Shown: positions 1,688 through 29,164, counted from the first letter of the stretch. The stretch: 31,766 nt of DNA from Promethearchaeota archaeon (GCA_004524535.1 SDNY01000034.1:1-31766), one strand, 5' to 3'. Notes: generated from the sequence alone by a model not told the origin. Numbers and translations: made by a program.

Positions 1688-3175
1688 TTAAAGCTCTTTT
1701 TTAGAAGCATTTTCGAGAATTTCACCAACATAATAAAACCCTACAAGATTACCTCTTTTCTCAAATTTTCTTGATACGAGTAATATAATTACATGTTCAT
1801 TTTCATCAACTGCACCTTGCTGTACAGCGTAATTAACGGAATATTCAATAATATCTTCGGCAGACATATTGAAAAAATCAAGATTTTCAATGTGTACAGG
1901 TTGTACACCCCATAGTAAATGTAGTTCCCTTGCTGTTCTTTTATGAGGTGTAATAGCTATAATAGGGAGCGGAGGTCTGTATTTTGCAATCATTCGAGCG
2001 CCAATTCCTCCACGCGTAATTACTAATACTTTCCCTCTGAAATTTAGATCCTCCATTTCTGTTGCTAATGCGTGAATCGCATGTCCTAAAATTTGGGTAT
2101 GTGTTAGTCTATCTGAATCATATTTGTCTGGAGTTCTTTTTGGCATATTTTCTTTTGCTGTAAAAGCAATTTTATTCATGTATTGAACCGCATTTATAGG
2201 ATAACTACCTACAGCAGTCTCTGCAGAGAGCATGACTGCATCCGTTCCATCGATAACTGCATTGAATACATCATTTGACTCAGCTCTTGTAGGTATAGGT
2301 GCATTTATCATTGATTCAAGCATTTGAGTCGCTACAATAACAGGTTTACCCTCCTTATTGCATTTATAAATCATTTCTTTTTGCCATAGTGGAACTAGAT
2401 CAGGAGAGATTTCGACTCCAAGATCTCCTCTTGCCACCATAATCCCATCTGAAACATTTAAAATATTATCAAAATTATCTAATGCGATAGGGCGCTCAAT
2501 TTTTGAAATAAGCTTTATATTGTTATTGCCATAATTTTCAAGTAGCTTTTTGACGTGAAGTACATCTTCTCCCGCTGATACGAAAGAGATTGCTACATAT
2601 TCAGGATCGATGTCAGCAATTAATTCTAAATCTTTTATATCTTTTTCAGTAGGAACTCTTTGTTTTAATTCTCCAGAGGGGATATTAACTCCCTTTCTGT
2701 TGCTTATCATTCCACCTGAGATAACTTCTCCTATAATATGGTCTTTTTCTTTGCTTTTTACTTTAATTTTTATAATTCCATCATTCACGAAAAAGAAATC
2801 ATCTTTTTTCATCGATTTCAGAAATCCGTCCAAGGGAACTGAAAATTGATTCTGATCTCCAATAATATCCTTCTCATACACTTTAACTTCTTGGCCAACA
2901 TTTAAAATATATTTATCTTCTTTAAATTTTCCAACTCTAATTTTTGGTCCTTGTATATCAGCTAATATCCCTACATAATCGTCTACTTCTCGAATTCTAT
3001 TAACCAACTCTATTTTTTCATCATGAGTTCCATGCGAGAAATTTAAGCGAAATACATCTACACCTGCCTCAATAAGGCTTTTAAGCATTTTCTTTGAACT
3101 ACTGGCCGGTCCTAAAGTACTAACTATCTTCACAGTATTCTCTCTAATAAGCCTTTTATACTCTATATTACTCAT
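1688..3175 (-). CDS. pyk: Pyruvate kinase
   Basis: KIVSTLGPAS, RLNFSHG, DIQGPKIR, KIE, GIMVARGDLGVE, ATQMLESM, PTRAE, DAVMLSAETA; ATG at 3175 follows GGAG. Confidence 0.98.
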   Translation of the reverse strand: MSNIEYKRLIRENTVKIVSTLGPASSSKKMLKSLIEAGVDVFRLNFSHGTHDEKIELVNRIREVDDYVGILADIQGPKIRVGKFKEDKYILNVGQEVKVYEKDIIGDQNQFSVPLDGFLKSMKKDDFFFVNDGIIKIKVKSKEKDHIIGEVISGGMISNRKGVNIPSGELKQRVPTEKDIKDLELIADIDPEYVAISFVSAGEDVLHVKKLLENYGNNNIKLISKIERPIALDNFDNILNVSDGIMVARGDLGVEISPDLVPLWQKEMIYKCNKEGKPVIVATQMLESMINAPIPTRAESNDVFNAVIDGTDAVMLSAETAVGSYPINAVQYMNKIAFTAKENMPKRTPDKYDSDRLTHTQILGHAIHALATEMEDLNFRGKVLVITRGGIGARMIAKYRPPLPIIAITPHKRTARELHLLWGVQPVHIENLDFFNMSAEDIIEYSVNYAVQQGAVDENEHVIILLVSRKFEKRGNLVGFYYVGEILENASKKEL

Positions 3176-7710: not shown

Positions 7711-8382
7711 TTAAGTACGAGGAAAATAAGGACATCTTTCTTCATGGCATTGAGCATTTTGATCATGAATATGACATCTCCCAATCATTTTTTGCTCAGG
7801 GAGATTTAAATTCATTTTCTTTAACGATTTTATTGCTTGTTCTATTGCTACATATGCACTTAATCTACAACATCTTGGACCTCCTAATTTTCCAATTCTT
7901 TCATTAGCTCGGATCGCTGCTTCAAAAGCTAGAGATCTTTCTTTGTTATGGAAAGGTGTTGATCTATGTATAACACTTATGGCAATACCAAGCCCAGACC
8001 CCCCACCACATGTTCCACAAAAACCGCAACCGCCAGCTGGAATTTTAAGGCCCCTCTTAAAGGCTTCAGTAACATCCTTCTCTGTAAATTCATATCCTGT
8101 ATTTTTTAATGCTAAAATAATGACAGCGGGTACTATGCCGTGATGCCATGGACCATGAAAGGGTAAGGTTTCAGAAGCAATCCATATTTTTCTTAAATCC
8201 TCAATAATATTTTCAAAAATAAGGATAGGATCTTTTTCTTTTTGGTTAAGTATGATTGGGAGTACTTTTCCCATAAATTCCATATAATCTTCCATTGTTA
8301 AATTGTCAAATTTAAGAGCATTTTCCATGAATTCATCATAATAATTAAAATCCTTACATTGTTCAAACTGTGCGTCATCCAT
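7711..8382 (-). CDS. DUF5714-like cysteine-rich protein
   Basis: HGPWHHGIVPA, GGCGFCGTCG, GGPRCCR, C-terminal CHEERCPYF. Confidence 0.8.
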   Translation of the reverse strand: MDDAQFEQCKDFNYYDEFMENALKFDNLTMEDYMEFMGKVLPIILNQKEKDPILIFENIIEDLRKIWIASETLPFHGPWHHGIVPAVIILALKNTGYEFTEKDVTEAFKRGLKIPAGGCGFCGTCGGGSGLGIAISVIHRSTPFHNKERSLAFEAAIRANERIGKLGGPRCCRLSAYVAIEQAIKSLKKMNLNLPEQKMIGRCHIHDQNAQCHEERCPYFPRT

Positions 8383-8451
8383 TTTTTATCACAGAATCAT
8401 ATATTTCTTAATAATTTTGGATGAATAAATATTTGATTTAATTTAAGTTTT

Positions 8452-8467
8452 ATCAAATCAATTTGAA
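8452..8467. promoter_or_regulatory. Putative ArsR operator
   Basis: ATCAA-N6-TTGAA between the divergent DUF5714 and arsR genes; resembles the ATCAA-N6-TTGAT ArsR/SmtB core. Confidence 0.4.
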
Positions 8468-8501
8468 AAAATTTAAAATAATTAATTAATTATCTAAAAA
8501 G

Positions 8502-8861
8502 ATGAAAAAAAGTTGTTTTCTAAATTATATTGATGATATTGAAAAAGATACGACAAGTGAGAGATTTTTATCTAAATATAAGGAAATTTTAGCTAATTTA
8601 GAAAATAATCCTGAGATCGAGAAAGATTTAAAAATTTATATAGCACTCTCGAATAAAATAAGATTTTTAATTTTTAAACTTATTGAAATCCATCCGATGT
8701 GTACCTGCGCTTTAGCTAAAATATTTGGAAAAAATGATGCGACAATAACTCATCATTTAAAAAAATTAGATAATGCGGGATTAATTTCTGGTAAAAAACA
8801 AGGTTATTATACAATATATTATTCGAATAAAGCTCTCATTGACCAACTTGCTTCATATTAA
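8502..8861 (+). CDS. arsR: ArsR/SmtB family regulator (1)
   Basis: ALSNKIR, MCTCALA, THHLKKLDNAGLI wHTH. Confidence 0.9.
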   Translation: MKKSCFLNYIDDIEKDTTSERFLSKYKEILANLENNPEIEKDLKIYIALSNKIRFLIFKLIEIHPMCTCALAKIFGKNDATITHHLKKLDNAGLISGKKQGYYTIYYSNKALIDQLASY

Positions 8862-9442: not shown

Positions 9443-10555
9443 TTACATTAATTCTTTTTCTTTCAAAATTCGAGGTAAATCTCTCTTTAAAGCAAATGCA
9501 CTCGTGTATTTTTTCTCACCATCAATGAGAACACAGTTACTACTTATATTTAAATCTCTTGCTTCAACTGAATTTAATGGTTTTGTTTCATACTCAATAT
9601 ATTTAATATATGGGGTGAGAACTTCAAATATTCGATTCATATACTGAGACCATTCACAAGCACAAGCATTTAGGGGAACATATATATCAACTTGTAATTT
9701 TAGACTTTTATCAATTTTTCTCTCCTTTTTTATAGCTTCTACTTTTATGCTGACAACAGAATTTGCTATGTCTTTTAATTCCTCATTTGACATATTTATT
9801 TGCTTAATTGTTTCTAAGAATCTTGGATTAATAGTTAAAACATCTATGGGAAAGCTAGTTTGATCTAAAATTTTGATATCTTCAAATCCCACATTCTTCA
9901 TAGTTTTTAGATATTGTTTCTTTAACACTGCACCAGCTACACATCCGATATAGGCTTCCATTGAATTTATGATAAAATCAGGAAGTTCTTTCAATAATAC
10001 TATATCTGAAACCATTAAACGACCATTATGTTTTAAAACCCGAAACGCTTCTTGAAAAGCTCTCTCCTTACTTGGAACTAGATTGATTACGCAATTAGAA
10101 ATGATCAAATCTATAACCTTATCGGAAACTGGAAGGTTCTCAATTTCTCCTAATCTAAATTCTACATTATTAAAATTACTTTTATCTGCATTTTTTCTCG
10201 CTGCAGAGATCATCTCTGGTGTCATATCAACACCAATAACTTTTCCTGTTTTTCCAACCTTTTGAACAGCAAGGAAAGCATCAAATCCAGCTCCTGATCC
10301 CAAGTCTAAGACAATATCTCCTTCTTTTATAGAAGCTAGGGCAACAGGATTTCCACAACCAAGGCCAAGATTAGCCCCTTCAGGTACGGAATTAAGTTCC
10401 TCTTCTGTATATCCTATATTTTTACTTATATCTTTCATAATATCAGATTCAGAACTTCCACAACAAGAACTCATAGGTCCACAGCATGAGTTTCCAGATT
10501 GCACTACTTTAGCATAACCAGTTCTTACAATTTTTTTTATTTCTTCTTCATTCAT
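9443..10555 (-). CDS. arsM: Arsenite methyltransferase with an extra C-terminal thioredoxin/ArsD-like domain
   Basis: N-terminal SCCG..SCCG, GLGCGNP, LDLGSGAGFD, ISNCVINL, GCVAGA; about 90-aa tail with CACEW. Confidence 0.93.
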   Translation of the reverse strand: MNEEEIKKIVRTGYAKVVQSGNSCCGPMSSCCGSSESDIMKDISKNIGYTEEELNSVPEGANLGLGCGNPVALASIKEGDIVLDLGSGAGFDAFLAVQKVGKTGKVIGVDMTPEMISAARKNADKSNFNNVEFRLGEIENLPVSDKVIDLIISNCVINLVPSKERAFQEAFRVLKHNGRLMVSDIVLLKELPDFIINSMEAYIGCVAGAVLKKQYLKTMKNVGFEDIKILDQTSFPIDVLTINPRFLETIKQINMSNEELKDIANSVVSIKVEAIKKERKIDKSLKLQVDIYVPLNACACEWSQYMNRIFEVLTPYIKYIEYETKPLNSVEARDLNISSNCVLIDGEKKYTSAFALKRDLPRILKEKELM

Positions 10556-10725
10556 TATTTTTCACTCTCCCAAAAACCTTTTTTATTTAAATATATTCCT
10601 AAATAGACCAATGATAACATGATTGGAACTTCCCAGAAAATATTAAATTTCTTTTTATTATAAGCAAATGCTTGTTCTCCATATCTCCCATGAGATATTA
10701 TTCCAACCTTTAGATTTTCTATCAT
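10555..10725 (-). pseudogene. 56-aa deletion chimera: DUF166-like N-terminus fused in frame to the Acr3 C-terminal helix
   Basis: MIENLKVGIISHGRYGEQAF... joined to FWEVPIMLSLVYLGIYLNKKGFWESEK, which nearly matches acr3 exon 3; TAATG overlap with arsM. Confidence 0.75.
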
Positions 10726-10885: not shown

Positions 10886-11269
10886 GTGTTAATTATTAAT
10901 ATCGAGCGACAAGAAGAAATTAAAAAAATGTTAAGTTGTTGTAAAGATTATTGTAGTGGTTATTTCCAAGATTTACAAACAAAAGGCTCTGAACTCAAAA
11001 TAAAAGAGGAATTTAAGAACTTAGAGACCTTTTTCAATGCATTAGCTTCTAAGGAGCGTCTCATAATTATCGAGACTTTAAAGGATCAAGACCGCTGCGT
11101 TTGCGAATTAGAGGCTATTTTGGATAAATCTCAATCTACAATTTCTCACCACTTAAGAAAACTTGAGAAAGCTGAATTGATTTATTCTTTTAGGAAGGGG
11201 AATTATACATATTATGGGCTTATTAAAGAAAAATTAAATACTTATTTGAAATATTTAATAAAGAGATAA
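10886..11269 (+). CDS. arsR: ArsR/SmtB family regulator (2)
   Basis: N-terminal SCCKDYC, DRCVCELE, SQSTISHHLRKL. Confidence 0.92.
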   Translation: MLIINIERQEEIKKMLSCCKDYCSGYFQDLQTKGSELKIKEEFKNLETFFNALASKERLIIIETLKDQDRCVCELEAILDKSQSTISHHLRKLEKAELIYSFRKGNYTYYGLIKEKLNTYLKYLIKR

Positions 11270-11553: not shown

Positions 11554-13190
11554 ATGAAAGAAATCAATAAAGATCAGCTAAAACCAGTCAATACATTAGC
11601 TTTAGAGAATTATAAAGATTTTATCAGAATGAATTTTTCAGGTCTAAGGAATCTAGAATTCATATCAACAAATTTTATTGAAAATTTACTAGACCAAATC
11701 AAAGCTATTCTAGGTGATGTACCAGATAAAAAAATTGCTGAGATACTTTATCATACATCTGATGGTTCTGAAGCTTTAGCTTTTGCTACGTTAAAACATA
11801 CGAAAAATGATAATCCAAATTCATTAATAGATGAAAATCTTTTAGATATTTGGTTTTTAAATCTTAAACGTGAGTTTCCAAGATATATTAGTACTTTTTT
11901 CAACATGATACATAATTACAAATTAATATATGCTGAAAAATGCGTTTTTGATTTAGTTGATAAATGGGATTCTTACTGCATTAAAGTGCAAAATCGGGGA
12001 CTGAATATGGAGACAAAAATGTTTGATTTTATTAAATCTGCGTTGAAAGGTATTCTTATAGAAGAAATGTCATTTATACTTTCATGTGGAATTCCTAACC
12101 ATAAAAAATTTCTTGTTCACTACAAACATTTATATCGTGCGGTATGTTCTTTATGTTCGAGAATTGAAAAATCGCTTTCATATCAGGATTTTGTCAGAGA
12201 AGTAGAACAGAGAAATGCAAAACTTGGATTTACCAAATCTGAATTTATAGATCGAATAACTAAGGAATTCAATAAACCACGAGATAAACAGCTAAAAGTT
12301 TCTGAAATTTTGTTTCCATTCATTTGTAATAAACATGGGAAATTAAAATTAGTATGGAACGTATTAAATCTGGTATTTGGTGTGCAGAATGTTATCATGA
12401 TAGAAGCAGATTAACGGTTAAGCAAATAATTGAGCGAGGGAAAAAATATAATTTTAATTTGGAAACTCCATTAAGCATAGTTAGTAAATTAAAACAACCA
12501 TCCAGAGAAGTATTAGAATGGTCTTGTATATATCATCCAAGCTTTAGATTTAAATCAAATCCCGATGATTATAGTTTAGATCTAAAATCTTGTGATATTT
12601 GTTCTGGAGGGCGAATAACGAGAGAAAGGATAATGCGTTATTTGCTTTCCAGACTATTTGGTAAAAATTTTGGTGAAAAACCAACACCATTACATACAAT
12701 ACTTCCTTTTGATGATGTTGCTCACTTATTGCCTAGTGATTATAGTACATTGAAGAGTTATAGACTTATGCATTTTGACGCATTTTGCTATATAGATAAG
12801 ATAATAGATAATAATTATGTTACTCTTAGTATCGCAGGTGGATATTGGGATCGCGAACACTCATCCTTAGAGCAATATATAGATAGATTTAGACATACAT
12901 CTCCTAGAAATGGAAGCCATCGAAATGATTATCTACATTTAAAATCGAGTGATAGATTCAAACAAGTTTTGAAGGATTACAGATTAATTGATATTTATAT
13001 TATAGTTGATCACACCTTACAACGTGATGATTTTCTAGGATCAATAATCTCTCAGTTTGAACAACAGATTAGGAAACTATTTAAATTAAAAAATTATCAT
13101 CTCACAAATATACCTCGTTGTAATTGGAGAGATTTAAAGCAAATCGACAAACTAAGACAAACTTTTGGTGACATAGTACGATTTATCTAA
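11554..13190 (+). pseudogene. Frameshifted zinc-ribbon plus VSR/PD-(D/E)XK-like nuclease gene (ORFs 11554-12414 and 12354-13190)
   Basis: A -1 shift near 12340 gives CNKHG-EIKISMERIKSGIWCAEC; second unit WSCIYHP..CDIC; C-terminal HFDAF...IAGGYWDREH. Confidence 0.55.
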
Positions 13191-13290: not shown

Positions 13291-14443
13291 CTACTCTGTT
13301 TTCTCTTCCCTACTCTCCCAGAATCCTTTTTTATTTAGAAATATTCCGATATAGACCAACGACAACATTATAGGAACTTCCCAGAATGACCCTTTCATAG
13401 TAAATCTATGAATCGTATAGTCCCATGGTAGTCCCTAATGCCGCGATTGATCCAACTCCATACATAGCAATTGCGACGGCAATAGCAATCTCAAAGTGGC
13501 TTGAAGATCCAATGATTATAGTAATTATTGCCTCTCGATAACTTAATTTTGTTAATTTTGTAATTATAATATTAATACTGACAACTATCGCAAATCCTAT
13601 AAGAAGTGGGATTGTAATCAGCAGCAATAAATCTGGACGCCGAACGATTATTTGCCCGTTTAAAGAGAATAATACAACCAAAGTCATTAAAAGCGCGCCG
13701 ATTGCTATTTTTGAAATCGCAGGTCTATATTTATTGTCAAACCAGTCTTCTCCTTTCGCATTTATCAAAAGTTTCTTACTTATTATCCCCAGCAATAATG
13801 GAGCTCCAATAAAAATAAACAATGAAATTAGCAAAAGAACTGGATCCAAAGGTATATTTTTTTCCAAAGTAATATTTGCGATGAATACCATGAGCATAAT
13901 TACCGGAATATATAGTACGATGATCGTCGCTGTATTTATGCTGGTTGTTATTACATTTTGTTCCTGATTCCCCTTAGCCATGTTTAGGGTCTATAAGGTA
14001 AATCCTAATATTAGATATCCCCAAACGAGAACCATGGCTGTGCAAGGACTGCTACTAAGCAGAATAATCGCAAATATTAACTGCTCATCTTCTAAAAACA
14101 AAATCGCCATTGCTATACCTATTAAAGGTGCAATTATCCAATTTGAAATTAAAGTGAGAATGATAGGTTTCGGATTTTTGCCTAATTTTTTAATTTCAGA
14201 TGCTTGAAGATTTAACATCGCGGGATACATCATAAAAAATAAGCAAATACCAATTGGTATTGAAATCCCTCTCACTTGCCATGAGTCTATTGATTCGCTT
14301 ATAGTCGGAATCACGTTAGATAGAAAGATTCCGAGAGCCATGCATAAAATAATCCAGATCGGAAGGAGTTTTTCAAAATAACCTAATCCTTTTCGCTTTT
14401 CTTCTTTATTTTCTAATTTTTCTTTATTGTTTAATTCATTCAT
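13291..14443 (-). CDS. acr3: Acr3 arsenite efflux permease, three exons (14443-14017, 13983-13417, 13385-13291), 362 aa after splicing
   Basis: MMYPAM, SNWIIAP, PCTAMVLVWGY|MAKGN, SSHFEIAIAVAIAMYG, MGLF|WEVPIML; exon lengths 427+567+95 = 1089 nt with no internal stop. Confidence 0.88.
13386..13416 (-). other. 31-nt BHB-type intron 2 in acr3
   Basis: GACU/GGUC 4-bp helix, bulges AU^A and AU^U, inner stem UUCAUAG/CUAUGAA; contains an in-frame UAG and shifts the frame. Confidence 0.82.
13984..14016 (-). other. 33-nt BHB/BHL-type intron 1 in acr3
   Basis: GGGG/CCCU 4-bp helix, bulges AU^A and AA^A, inner UCUA/UAGA and AGG/CCU, exon-exon stem AGCCAUG/CAUGGCU; in-frame UAG. Confidence 0.8.
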
Positions 14444-14578: not shown

Positions 14579-14989
14579 GTGTTTATCATTAAAGTCAAGC
14601 GTGTAAATGAAATTAAAGCAATGCTATGTTGTTGTGAAGATATCACAAATACAAATGAATATTTTAAAGAATTAAAAGAATTAGGAGAAAATTTGAGAAA
14701 TAATAATCAATTAAATAGTCTCCTTGTTTTTCTTAATGCTTTAAGTAATAAAGAACGCCTCATAATATTTAGCTCTTTAAAAGAGAAAGATAGATGTGTT
14801 TGTGAATTAGAAATAATTCTAAATAAATCTCAACCTTCAATATCTCATCATTTAAGAATACTTGAGGGTGCTGGTTTAATCCGAGGATGGAAAAAAGGAA
14901 AATTTACATATTACGGAATAGAACATAAAAATTTTAAAATAAGTCAAACGGATTTTATTGAGAATTTAACTTTAGAAAAAATTGCCTAA
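14579..14989 (+). CDS. arsR: ArsR/SmtB family regulator (3)
   Basis: MLCCCED, DRCVCELE, SQPSISHHLRIL; clear paralogue of 10886-11269. Confidence 0.92.
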   Translation: MFIIKVKRVNEIKAMLCCCEDITNTNEYFKELKELGENLRNNNQLNSLLVFLNALSNKERLIIFSSLKEKDRCVCELEIILNKSQPSISHHLRILEGAGLIRGWKKGKFTYYGIEHKNFKISQTDFIENLTLEKIA

Positions 14990-15229: not shown

Positions 15230-15649
15230 TTAAAAGGAATAGACTATAAGATCCTCAATCTTTTCAAAATGCTTTCGATTATTCGTAATGATTTCTTTAA
15301 ATTCATTTGTAAGTATTACAGCTGAAATTAGGCAATCAAAAATATCTATTTCTTGACCTTTACCTTTCAATTTCATATGTATTTTTGCCCCGAGATTAGC
15401 AGCATTTTCATTTAAGGAAAATGTTTCTAACCGGTTAATGAATTTCTTTAAATCTCCATTGAGTCTTTGGTATTCTTGCTTTGAAATTTTTTTCTTCAGA
15501 TATTTTAACTTATAAATACCAAGAAAAAGTTCAAAAATGGAAGGGCTAGTTATTCCAAATTTATCTGTCTTGAATTTATTCAACACTTCTTCAAGAGTAA
15601 CAGCACCATTTAGAATCTCAATGGCACTACTTGTATCTAAAAAAATCAT
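15230..15649 (-). CDS. vapC: PIN-domain toxin
   Basis: IFLDTS, FEL, FDCLISA, ITNNRKHF. Confidence 0.93.
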   Translation of the reverse strand: MIFLDTSSAIEILNGAVTLEEVLNKFKTDKFGITSPSIFELFLGIYKLKYLKKKISKQEYQRLNGDLKKFINRLETFSLNENAANLGAKIHMKLKGKGQEIDIFDCLISAVILTNEFKEIITNNRKHFEKIEDLIVYSF

Positions 15650-16307: not shown

Positions 16308-16676
16308 CTATTTTCTCAAATCGTTTAATTCTCTTATAAATTCTTTCAAATTTGGTTTTTCTAACTCATTGATTTTATTTTTATAATGTTTATGATGTGG
16401 GAAGGATTTTAATTCTTTATGATGTGGAGCATTATCATATCTTAAAATAGAAATCTTTTCTTTAATATAAACATAAGAATATTTTAGTAATTTACCTGAA
16501 AAATAAAATTCAAAAATTTCAACATAATCTTTTTTATCTAAAAATCCTTTTAATCTGAAATGGCCAGTGCTAGGATTATCCGTTGCAATTTTAATAGAAA
16601 TCAGTTTTAGACTTTTAAGGGAAAGTTGAGCTAACTCGTTCGAAGCGAGCTCAGCTCTCTTTAATACGCTTTTCAA
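16308..16676 (-). CDS. DUF6516/TumE-like putative toxin
   Basis: KYSY...LRYDNAPHH...FPHHKH; exact start uncertain. Confidence 0.8.
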   Translation of the reverse strand: MKSVLKRAELASNELAQLSLKSLKLISIKIATDNPSTGHFRLKGFLDKKDYVEIFEFYFSGKLLKYSYVYIKEKISILRYDNAPHHKELKSFPHHKHYKNKINELEKPNLKEFIRELNDLRK

Positions 16677-27573: not shown

Positions 27574-28221
27574 CTAACCCGTCGCAGTACAGATTTCTAA
27601 GATCATTTCCGCAACCGCATTATTATACGTCTCAATATCCGCAAAGCCTTCCACTGTCTCTCCGCACGTAATATAGGTTTCCTTTACCTCAATTTTTCTC
27701 TTAGTAAAGTAATCTACTATTTTCTTCTTTGATGCTTCGAGTTTCTTTTCCTTCTCCGCCTTACTTCCTTCCATCAAATCAAATTTGTTTATACAAACAT
27801 AGATGGCCTTCGGAAAGAACCGAACATCCATAAAAAACTTTAACTGATCCTCTATCGGACGATCCATCGAAAATACCGCCACAATCTGCGTAGCAATCCG
27901 GGAGATCGTGATAATCCCCATTTTGACCACAGCCCTTGAAGAATCGCCGCCTGGGGCGAAGATGGTATGAGCTTTGTTAGTTTTGTCGTCTCTAAAAACT
28001 ATACGATTAGGATGGATGGTTTTCGTTTCTTTTTCATTGAGCGCGTCTTCTTTTTTACCTCCGGGAACTGTTGCCTCACCGCTGAAGTCCGTCTTCATTA
28101 CAGTGCATTTTGTACCTCCTTCCACATTTTCGATATCACCTTTATTTAGATATCTGACGAATAACCGTAATAGGGAAGTCTTTCCAACGCTTATATCTCC
28201 AAGCAAACCAATATTGACCAT
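27574..28221 (-). CDS. Ras-superfamily small GTPase, MglA-like
   Basis: G1 GDISVGKT, G2 region TKTI, G3 replaced by APGG, G4 NKFD; GGAGG leader. Confidence 0.85.
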   Translation of the reverse strand: MVNIGLLGDISVGKTSLLRLFVRYLNKGDIENVEGGTKCTVMKTDFSGEATVPGGKKEDALNEKETKTIHPNRIVFRDDKTNKAHTIFAPGGDSSRAVVKMGIITISRIATQIVAVFSMDRPIEDQLKFFMDVRFFPKAIYVCINKFDLMEGSKAEKEKKLEASKKKIVDYFTKRKIEVKETYITCGETVEGFADIETYNNAVAEMILEICTATG

Positions 28222-28223
28222 TT

Positions 28224-29024
28224 TTAGCCCTCCAATAATTTATTTAAAAGTAATTCATAATCATCAATTAAAAATTGCTCAAGAAAAGCATTGTTATGAG
28301 CATGAATTAATGCTACCATCACTTCTTTTAAATTTTTAGCATTTTTAGCATATTTTAATAGATTTTCTGGTGTGGGATCACTAGAAAATTCTCTCGCTTG
28401 TTGTTCAAAACCAAATTTCTTCAATTCAGGCAAGGAGTTAAAAAATCCAAATGAAGAATAACCTTGATGCTGAAAAAAGACAAAAAATCTCGACTTAATC
28501 GATTTAATAATCTCCGTTAAATAAACGCTTGGATAAATTTCACCTAAAATTAAATCCTCGTCTTGATTAATTACGAAATAGGGGGATATAGGAGATACTT
28601 GGCTTCCGTACATTTCTCTTGGAGGTAGCGAAATAAAAGGTAATTTTTCTTCCACTATGGTCCATAAATCTTCTCTTTTCTTCTCTGCTAAAATATCTTT
28701 AATTTCATCATAGGCAAAGTAGAAATCAGATTGAAGTGATAACAATGAACTGAGATATACTGATAAGGATGCAAAAGTTGCTTCTAAAAGAGGACGCCTT
28801 CCACTATCGGTAGGTTTAGCAGCGCCCTTCCAAGCTCGAAGTGCGCTGTAAGCAAACCCCTTAACGTCGAAAAACTGTCCTGATAGAAATATAAAAGATG
28901 GGGCCTCGCCTTCAGGAGAGGATAAAAATTGAGATGCCTTATTGATTAATAAGTCTTGTATTTTTTGATCGTTGAATTTAGAGTGGACTTTCGGCATTAT
29001 TAGCCATTTTTGTTTTTTTGCCAA
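28224..29024 (-). CDS. Hypothetical protein closely linked to the GTPase
   Basis: 266 aa; ends 2 nt before the GTPase ATG; GGAGTG leader. Confidence 0.8.
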   Translation of the reverse strand: MAKKQKWLIMPKVHSKFNDQKIQDLLINKASQFLSSPEGEAPSFIFLSGQFFDVKGFAYSALRAWKGAAKPTDSGRRPLLEATFASLSVYLSSLLSLQSDFYFAYDEIKDILAEKKREDLWTIVEEKLPFISLPPREMYGSQVSPISPYFVINQDEDLILGEIYPSVYLTEIIKSIKSRFFVFFQHQGYSSFGFFNSLPELKKFGFEQQAREFSSDPTPENLLKYAKNAKNLKEVMVALIHAHNNAFLEQFLIDDYELLLNKLLEG

Positions 29025-29164
29025 GATTGATACACTCCATTTATTTTAATACAATTAATAAAAATTGCTGAAATTTTAACTTTTCGTGTTATAATTAATC
29101 AATAAATATAAATATATAATTTTAGCGATTAGTGAAATATTTATTCATTGTCAATTTGTCATAA

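Follow-up and report, generated by a model that had tools for sequence, protein, structure and literature searches.

Reportedly, Watanabe described in 2002 a bulge-helix-bulge (BHB) intron in a pre-mRNA, that of crenarchaeal cbf5. This intron has been linked to the relaxed specificity of two-subunit splicing endonucleases (Yokobori 2009, PMC2738675). According to the available parts of a report on Haloferax volcanii, cbf5 of Crenarchaeota was the only further BHB case in an mRNA reported by then; the mRNA described there, HVO_1309, contains a BHB intron in its 5′ untranslated region (UTR), and its cleavage by the splicing endonuclease was confirmed in vitro (PMC7714728). Asgard archaea are known to have non-canonical tRNA introns, the route of arrival of which is left open in the accessible text of the preprint (10.64898/2026.10.13.758758). 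Here, a 31,766-nt stretch of DNA from Promethearchaeota archaeon (GCA_004524535.1 SDNY01000034.1:1-31766; hereafter the window) was analyzed. Between positions 13291 and 14443 its minus strand carries a gene which, by its predicted protein, is an ACR3-type arsenite efflux permease (SBF family). The gene is interrupted by two short inserts, of 33 nt (intron 1) and 31 nt (intron 2), and the latter is very probably a BHB (endonuclease-type) intron in a working ACR3 gene. The source genome (G000; 3.66 Mb, 30.4% G+C, 198 contigs, an archaeal bin) is that of a Lokiarchaeial (Promethearchaeota) Asgard archaeon.

Short introns are also removed from mRNA without the spliceosome in HAC1/XBP1, where they lie at stem-loops, an RtcB-type ligase joins the exons, and the C-terminal reading frame changes. 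The short ACR3 intron with its stem-loop sites, predicted RtcB-type joining, and altered C-terminal frame resembles this system; it differs in that the nuclease there is IRE1, acting in a regulated stress response, whereas no such regulation was seen for ACR3. RtcB takes part in XBP-1 mRNA splicing, as stated in the available part of the source (PMC8718801). With cbf5, going by the accessible portions of the sources, the ACR3 case shares a patchy distribution with gain and loss, and a host with a two-subunit type endonuclease (for G000 suggested by two EndA paralogues, see below). It differs in lineage and gene (Lokiarchaeia, ACR3), in the number of introns (ACR3 has two, and five other genes together have at least six), in their stereotyped build of 26-34 nt, and in the link to an inserted DNA cassette; moreover, splicing was demonstrated for cbf5, whereas the ACR3 introns are known from DNA sequence. 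HVO_1309, as far as its report is available, is likewise an mRNA with a BHB intron for the splicing endonuclease, but in an untranslated leader rather than in coding sequence, and in a euryarchaeal host with an enzyme of the single-subunit type (PMC7714728). The Asgard tRNA introns, in the part of the preprint at hand, are similarly short BHB introns, repeatedly gained, with half of the motif contributed by the exon and with the same presumed enzymes; that part makes no mention of protein genes with introns (10.64898/2026.10.13.758758). In contrast to these, ACR3 offers an mRNA without a tRNA body for recognition, and removal must be exact to the base if the frame is to be kept. In the literature searched, endonuclease-type introns in archaeal coding sequence are known from one gene, cbf5 (PMC7714728, available part), and full-text searches returned nothing on introns of this type in protein genes of Asgard archaea, supplementary files not being covered.

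Structure and borders of the 31-nt insert

The interrupted gene appears as three successive open reading frames (ORFs) on the minus strand (14443-13991, 13981-13406, and 13398-13291), the first two of which match consecutive parts of Pfam SBF (Table 1). Its spliced reading comprises 362 amino acids (aa) and aligns end to end with the relatives. Of 40 relatives, 36 possess ACR3, its open frame measuring 342-455 aa (leaving out G000 itself and one copy truncated by a contig end), and the longest piece in G000, where the gene is single-copy, has 194 aa. For the conserved Cys region and for Glu-Val-Pro near the C-terminus, a catalytic role is presumed, as in other Acr3 proteins.

A first-pass annotation, made from the sequence alone, had held that read-through cannot rescue the gene and that only exact removal of the insert restores the last helix with its conserved Glu. 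The sequence agrees with both claims: intron 2 is 31 nt long and carries an in-frame TAG, which ends the ORF at 13406; when 13416-13386 is removed, the uninterrupted reading of the orthologues results in frame, with Leu-Phe-Trp-Glu-Val-Pro at the junction. All seven aligned orthologues lack exactly these 31 nt, and they also lack the 33 nt at 14016-13984. The textbook cuts would lie between 13417 and 13416 (5′) and between 13386 and 13385 (3′); an AT repeat creates three equal cut registers (also 13418-13388 and 13417-13387), all with the identical product. That the insert is not a tandem duplication was likewise borne out, the best other match of intron 2 in G000 being 15 nt long. A repeated element as the source of the ACR3 inserts was considered and rejected (blastn-short; no match elsewhere in G000 exceeding 16 nt).

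The GACU/GGUC helix, the AUA and AUU bulges, the C-G closing pair, and the 7-bp hairpin pointed out earlier were all recovered from the sequence and with RNAfold. In the central helix, the exon bases GACU (13422-13419) form 4/4 pairs with the intron bases GGUC (13391-13388). It is flanked by two bulges of 3 nt each, A13418 U13417/A13416 and A13387 U13386/U13385 (the slash marking the textbook cut), and pair C13415-G13392 closes the inner stem. The hairpin pairs 13412-13406 with 13400-13394 around a 5-nt loop (13405-13401). Thus, the intron side of the motif consists of 1 bp, a 2×1 loop, and the 7-bp hairpin, and the exon side of 3 bp plus a distal helix of 8 bp; intron 2 fits the relaxed BHB form, not the strict hBHBh′ form. 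RNAfold of a 75-nt stretch gave the same helices, including the distal one, at −21.7 kcal/mol (z = −3.15), and 1 of 200 shuffles was as stable. In random 31-nt segments of G000 (n = 300,000), a 4-bp helix at the right offset occurred in 2.5%, and the combination of helix, A-first bulges, and an equally stable inner hairpin in seven, the A-first rule used in this count having been noticed after the fact.

Intron 1 is built from a central helix GGGG/CCCU, bulges AU/A and AA/A, and an inner helix UCUA/UAGA, and its predicted cuts restore the reading frame. It is also found in two other loci that contain intron 2, L033 (at the same positions) and L165; in the latter, cutting at the same positions creates a Trp codon, which most orthologues also have.

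In the proposed course of events, exon GACU would pair with intron GGUC in the ACR3 pre-mRNA, and the central helix, with its bulges on opposite strands, would be stacked on the intron hairpin and a weak exon-exon helix. EndA would cut after the second base of each bulge, RtcB would join the exons, and the 31-mer would be released. The spliced mRNA alone would encode the last membrane helix, the unspliced one ending at the TAG of the intron. G000 encodes two EndA paralogues (PF01974; 107.9 and 70.7 bits), located on contigs C100 and C84, which suggests the broad-specificity two-subunit type, and, on C101, RtcB (PF01139; 561 bits) in an open frame of 497 aa. From this gene content and the motif we infer cleavage, ligation, and the subunit make-up of EndA.

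Carriers, selection, and inserts of the same build

Intron 2 was absent from 160 of the 166 ACR3 loci examined. Eight other loci contain a homologous insert at the same site: L033, four found among 165 ACR3 loci (L163, L165, L156, and L045, the copy in L045 having 34 nt), and three found via the neighboring gene ORF-X described below (L230, L232, and L233); L234 has the same sequence as L156 and was counted once. In all nine carriers, the exons are otherwise intact. L033 is a metagenome contig with 91% protein identity to the ACR3 of G000, and removal of both its inserts yields a complete protein of 365 aa. When six of the carriers were aligned, 92% of the structure cells were paired, compared with 34-53% when the partners were slid by 1-3 columns. 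The central helix is kept in all six, with U-G changed to U-A in two, and in the distal exon-exon helix 95.8% of the cells pair. The register of the hairpin helix is shifted in L156 and L045.

Between G000 and L033, ∼108 of 241 synonymous sites of ACR3 have changed; dS is 0.68 and dN 0.042, a ratio of 0.062 (values by exon in Table 1). The indel by which the two differ in exon 3 is 9 nt long and in frame. Among 15 carrier pairs, dN/dS was computable for nine, ranging from 0.04 to 0.19, the other six being saturated at synonymous sites. Judged by these ratios, the interrupted ACR3 is under strong purifying selection. The two introns differ between G000 and L033 at 5 of 64 nt (Fisher p = 5e-9 versus the synonymous sites), and both differences that fall inside stems yield G-U pairs. 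A contrast to the carriers is offered by L226, a contig from a Promethearchaeota metagenome-assembled genome, the ACR3 of which lacks the insert but contains two point stops in place of a conserved Ser and a conserved Trp; this copy is likely a true pseudogene.

Inserts of the same kind are present in other genes. Comparison of 1,742 ORFs from 1.2 Mb of the same-genus genome G001 (contig 6) with G000, 1,175 of which matched, revealed at least eight BHB-type inserts in six protein genes of G000, ACR3 included. Were this rate to apply throughout, a genome would be expected to have a few dozen of them. The six outside ACR3 (26-31 nt; Table 1) are frame-breaking, split five genes, and are all absent from G001; Pfam coordinates continue across the breaks in leucyl-tRNA synthetase (LeuRS), Rpb1 domain 1, AAA_3 (1-88 and 89-131), CdhC, and SCP2. 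LeuRS is single-copy in G000; the 29 relatives with a full-length match all have it without an interruption, so that this essential gene gained its intron recently. G001 in turn has inserts of its own which G000 lacks, of 32 nt (C6 ∼396802-396833) and 29 nt (∼188850); one interrupts a CO dehydrogenase/acetyl-CoA synthase alpha-like gene and one a different gene, and both were read by eye. The ten inserts share one build, namely four exon bases, a bulge, a hairpin, four exon-pairing bases, and a bulge, so that the intron itself comprises 1 nt, the hairpin, 4 nt pairing with the exon, and 2 nt. The central helix has 4/4 pairs in nine of them and 3/4 in RNA polymerase A′, 19 of the 20 bulges begin with A, and the predicted cuts restore the orthologous reading in all ten. 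Intron 2 of ACR3 is one member of a family of mini-introns (26-34 nt) that have a stereotyped build and occur in several protein genes of the genus.

Among the genes split in this way are those for the largest subunit of RNA polymerase and for an aminoacyl-tRNA synthetase present in a single copy, and the evolutionary evidence, taken from sequence comparison, shows that interrupted genes of this kind work. If splicing is true, gene callers would systematically mis-annotate them as fragments or pseudogenes, translation in these cells, which lack a nucleus, would either have to be delayed until splicing is done or compete with it, and relatives of the eukaryotic ancestor would already tolerate introns in protein genes.

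Points against splicing and competing explanations

A number of points weigh against BHB splicing of ACR3. It is read from DNA rather than seen in RNA, a search for sequencing runs that contain the stretch having returned seven, none of them of RNA, and the ACR3 motif is a presumed substrate of the Lokiarchaeial EndA. The exon-exon helix beside the motif of intron 2 is weak (3 bp, two of them G-U), and intron 1 has none next to its motif; the earlier description of intron 2 as a near-canonical BHB is fair. The perfect 7-bp hairpin exists in G000 and is specific to it, the middle pair being mismatched in four of the six aligned carriers. Covariation, which the first-pass annotation had proposed as a check on the hairpin, is thin: apart from four pairs with one-sided changes, a single pair has changed on both sides (U-A in L045 versus A-U or G-U elsewhere), and it is located in the distal exon helix, not in the hairpin. 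Because 82 of 500 shuffles reach the observed score, covariation alone proves little. A de novo scan of G000 for BHB removals that fuse open frames gave no excess over frame-shifted controls, in which the 3′ cut was displaced by 1-2 nt (28,425 versus 28,120-29,114; strong motifs, 3,126 versus 3,040-3,144), nor did a scan with the family's own template (8,356 versus 8,113-8,679) or one with a filter for hairpin energy; such scans cannot pick out true introns that number a few dozen, the signal being drowned by junctions between genes. Lastly, the intron is patchy and probably mobile, and its sequence conservation may in part reflect recent transfer rather than constraint.

Were ACR3 a pseudogene in G000, its inserts would be inert scars, for example the ends of a mobile cassette, never removed from RNA. 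The locus is indeed rearranged, as the displaced copy of exon 3 described below indicates, and ACR3 pseudogenes do occur, as in L226; in addition, the adjacent ORF-X looks like a decaying copy, with a −1 frameshift near 12350 and Gly in place of a Glu conserved in six aligned relatives. This is very unlikely to be the explanation, given the low dN/dS across all three exons at the considerable dS between carriers, the otherwise intact exons in all nine of them, the in-frame length of the exon 3 indel, the lack of a second ACR3 in G000, and the like inserts in single-copy LeuRS and RNA polymerase A′. Even less credit is due to ribosome hopping, for which gene 60 of phage T4 is an example. Here, the ribosome would take off at the UCA before the UAG (UCA-UAG at 13411-13406, the hairpin right after it) and land at a second UCA near the 3′ end of the insert (13389-13387), which is in the frame of exon 3. 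This arrangement is not conserved, since the stop is preceded by UCU in L163 and L165 and is missing altogether in L156; hopping would also place three extra residues inside a motif kept uninterrupted in all orthologues, and it leaves intron 1 and the six other G000 inserts unexplained.

The introns might also be spliced by something other than EndA and RtcB, that is, by a different nuclease and ligase or with a factor that ORF-X encodes, which would recognize the hairpin. The weak or missing exon-exon helix is consistent with this, as are the A-first preference of the bulges, which lies outside the textbook motif, and the lack of a family match for ORF-X. On the other hand, all ten inserts have the 4-bp helix and the 3-nt bulges at the offsets that define EndA substrates, with cuts that restore the frame; eight of the ten have no ORF-X nearby, and ORF-X is single-copy in G000 and found in 9 of the 160 genomes of the class. 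Other enzymes are accordingly improbable, about as much so as a dead gene. An artefact of assembly or sequencing, conceivable for a metagenome-assembled genome consisting of a 198-contig bin, has a negligible chance of being correct: the same inserts, with substitutions of their own, occur in independent metagenome contigs and genomes, and DNA contigs of other sequencing runs and studies span both ACR3 inserts. Splicing at the BHB motifs by EndA and RtcB is the preferred reading.

ORF-X, the displaced exon, and the arsenic island

A FastTree phylogeny of 134 ACR3 proteins places the six carriers in no fewer than four well-supported groups, and every one of these groups also has close relatives that lack the intron. 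With the carriers scattered over the tree in this way, at least four gains or losses of intron 2 are needed.

Table 1. Positions of the features discussed, in the window and on other contigs of G000 (dN/dS, G000 versus L033).
Feature	Sequence	Position	Strand	Remark
ACR3 exon 1	window	14017..14443	-	SBF 2-87 of 191 (first ORF); dN/dS 0.07
Intron 1, 33 nt	window	13984..14016	-	in-frame TAG; absent from aligned orthologues
ACR3 exon 2	window	13417..13983	-	SBF 85-190 of 191 (second ORF); dN/dS 0.047
Intron 2, 31 nt	window	13386..13416	-	absent in 7/7 aligned orthologues; inner hairpin −5.6 kcal/mol
ACR3 exon 3 + stop	window	13291..13385	-	last transmembrane helix with conserved Glu-Val-Pro; dN/dS 0.20 (33 codons)
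Distal exon-exon helix, 5′ strand UAGGGACU, exon 2	window	13430..13437	-	pairs with AGUUCCUA, 13371-13378, in exon 3; minimum-free-energy fold
Exon strand GACU of central helix	window	13419..13422	-	pairs kept in all 6 aligned carriers
Intron 2 hairpin	window	13394..13412	-	middle pair mismatched in 4/6 carriers
ORF-X, two overlapping ORFs (11554-12414, 12354-13190)	window	11554..13190	+	one 422-869-aa protein in relatives (869 aa in L238)
Displaced intronless ACR3 exon 3 copy, 27 codons + stop	window	10555..10638	-	similarity starts at 3′ splice site of intron 2
arsR-family regulator, divergent upstream of ACR3	window	14579..14989	+	Pfam HTH_5, E = 1.9e-14
Second arsR-family gene, in inserted block between ORF-X and displaced exon 3	window	10886..11269	+	Pfam HTH_5, E = 7.8e-17
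Acetyl-CoA synthase beta (CdhC) insert, 29 nt	C32	3790-3818		absent from G001
MoxR-type AAA ATPase insert, 29 nt	C26	5940-5968		absent from G001
MoxR-type AAA ATPase insert, 31 nt	C26	5413-5443		absent from G001
Leucyl-tRNA synthetase insert, 29 nt	C185	15915-15943		within conserved Gly-Gly-Ile-Glu-His-Ala
RNA polymerase A′ insert, 31 nt	C17	449-479		absent from G001
SCP2 protein insert, 26 nt	C86	9543-9568		absent from G001

ORF-X and ACR3 are convergent, with 100 nt between the end of ORF-X and the ACR3 stop. ORF-X adjoins seven of the nine carriers of intron 2 and none of the 160 intronless loci, three of the carriers having been found via ORF-X. The family is confined to Lokiarchaeia (10 clusters) and has Cys/His motifs. 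It is not strictly tied to ACR3, because one copy (L240, G110:C42, 3467-4885, minus strand) stands without an adjacent ACR3, beside an LRR-methyltransferase gene. Searches of Pfam, PHROG, PADLOC, and PDB sequences returned no match for ORF-X, and Foldseek none at E ≤ 0.001; its weak matches included BamHI, MspJI, and cap-snatching nucleases at E 0.13-0.4. Proteins that a language model places close to ORF-X (0.91-0.92) carry DUF723, a DUF4379 zinc finger, or DUF559, the RAP domain matches one of seven ORF-X members (E = 0.014), and DUF559, when looked for in G000, was not found. These weak leads hint at a zinc finger combined with a fold of the PD-(D/E)XK type.

Beyond ORF-X lies a displaced, intronless copy of ACR3 exon 3, the stop of which overlaps the start of an arsM-like SAM methyltransferase gene (9443-10555, minus strand), just as the end of ACR3 does in the intronless relatives of the genus. 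It looks like the old ACR3 end, moved by an insertion of ∼2.7 kb. In three of the four carriers with enough flank, displaced exon 3 copies start 0, ∼8, and ∼20 nt from the intron site; the sequence of the fourth contains none. Because the displaced last-exon copy begins at the intron site, intron 2 marks the edge of a mobile cassette; read most simply, this site received an insertion made up of the intron, a replacement exon 3, and ORF-X. Between G000 and L033, the cassette has diverged (exon 3 dS 0.41; ORF-X 72% identity), and hence neither obtained it recently from the other.

In the collaborative homing of phages, an ORF-less intron interrupts the target site of a homing endonuclease, the separate gene of which lies beside the interrupted gene. 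The ACR3 locus is similar in that a neighboring gene is co-distributed with the intron and the DNA footprint begins at the insertion site; it differs in that the intron is BHB and not self-splicing group I, that ORF-X is only a candidate nuclease, and that the cassette brings in a replacement exon while the old one stays behind. In a homing scenario, ORF-X would cleave those ACR3 alleles that lack the intron, at the site of the intron, and would insert a copy of itself along with the intron and a last exon replacing the old one, which would be left behind; intron 2 would then be the RNA-level patch of a DNA cassette. It is a tentative idea, on balance doubtful, that Lokiarchaeia harbor mobile 26-34-nt mini-introns which invade protein genes, essential ones included, and are rescued by tRNA splicing, with ORF-X as the free-standing zinc-finger/PD-(D/E)XK-like nuclease of a homing cassette. 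If true, it would be a BHB-intron homing system in the archaeal lineage closest to eukaryotes, and a living model for the spread of introns among protein genes before the spliceosome existed. If splicing is true, the displaced exon and the rare neighboring gene provide a concrete, testable route of arrival for such introns.

The surroundings of ACR3 form a small arsenic island, which comprises ACR3, three arsR-family genes, the arsM-like methyltransferase gene, and a DUF5714 gene (7711-8382). The three arsR-family regulators lie within 6.5 kb on the plus strand (8502-8861, 10886-11269, and 14579-14989), the latter two being 53% identical; an arsR gene adjoins ACR3 in most loci examined. Beside the arsenic genes are a PIN-domain gene (15230-15649, minus strand) and a TumE-like toxin gene (16308-16676, minus strand), which are probably toxin-antitoxin modules. 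In the whole window, ARAGORN found 0 tRNAs and Rfam 0 families; for all of G000, ARAGORN called just 12 tRNAs, 8 of which had implausible introns, and these calls were set aside.

The comparison with G001 also brought up differences of other kinds. Apparent frameshifts of 1-2 nt relative to G001 orthologues were seen in G000 at C114 27863-27881, C3 10741-10762, C16 7743-7752, and C188 41135; sequencing errors, pseudogenes, or programmed frameshifting could account for them. Extra segments of 357, 234, and 150 nt in collinear genes (G000 C186 27379-27758, G001:C6 119928-120160, and G000 C122 6660-6823, respectively) could be larger introns, inteins, or insertions.

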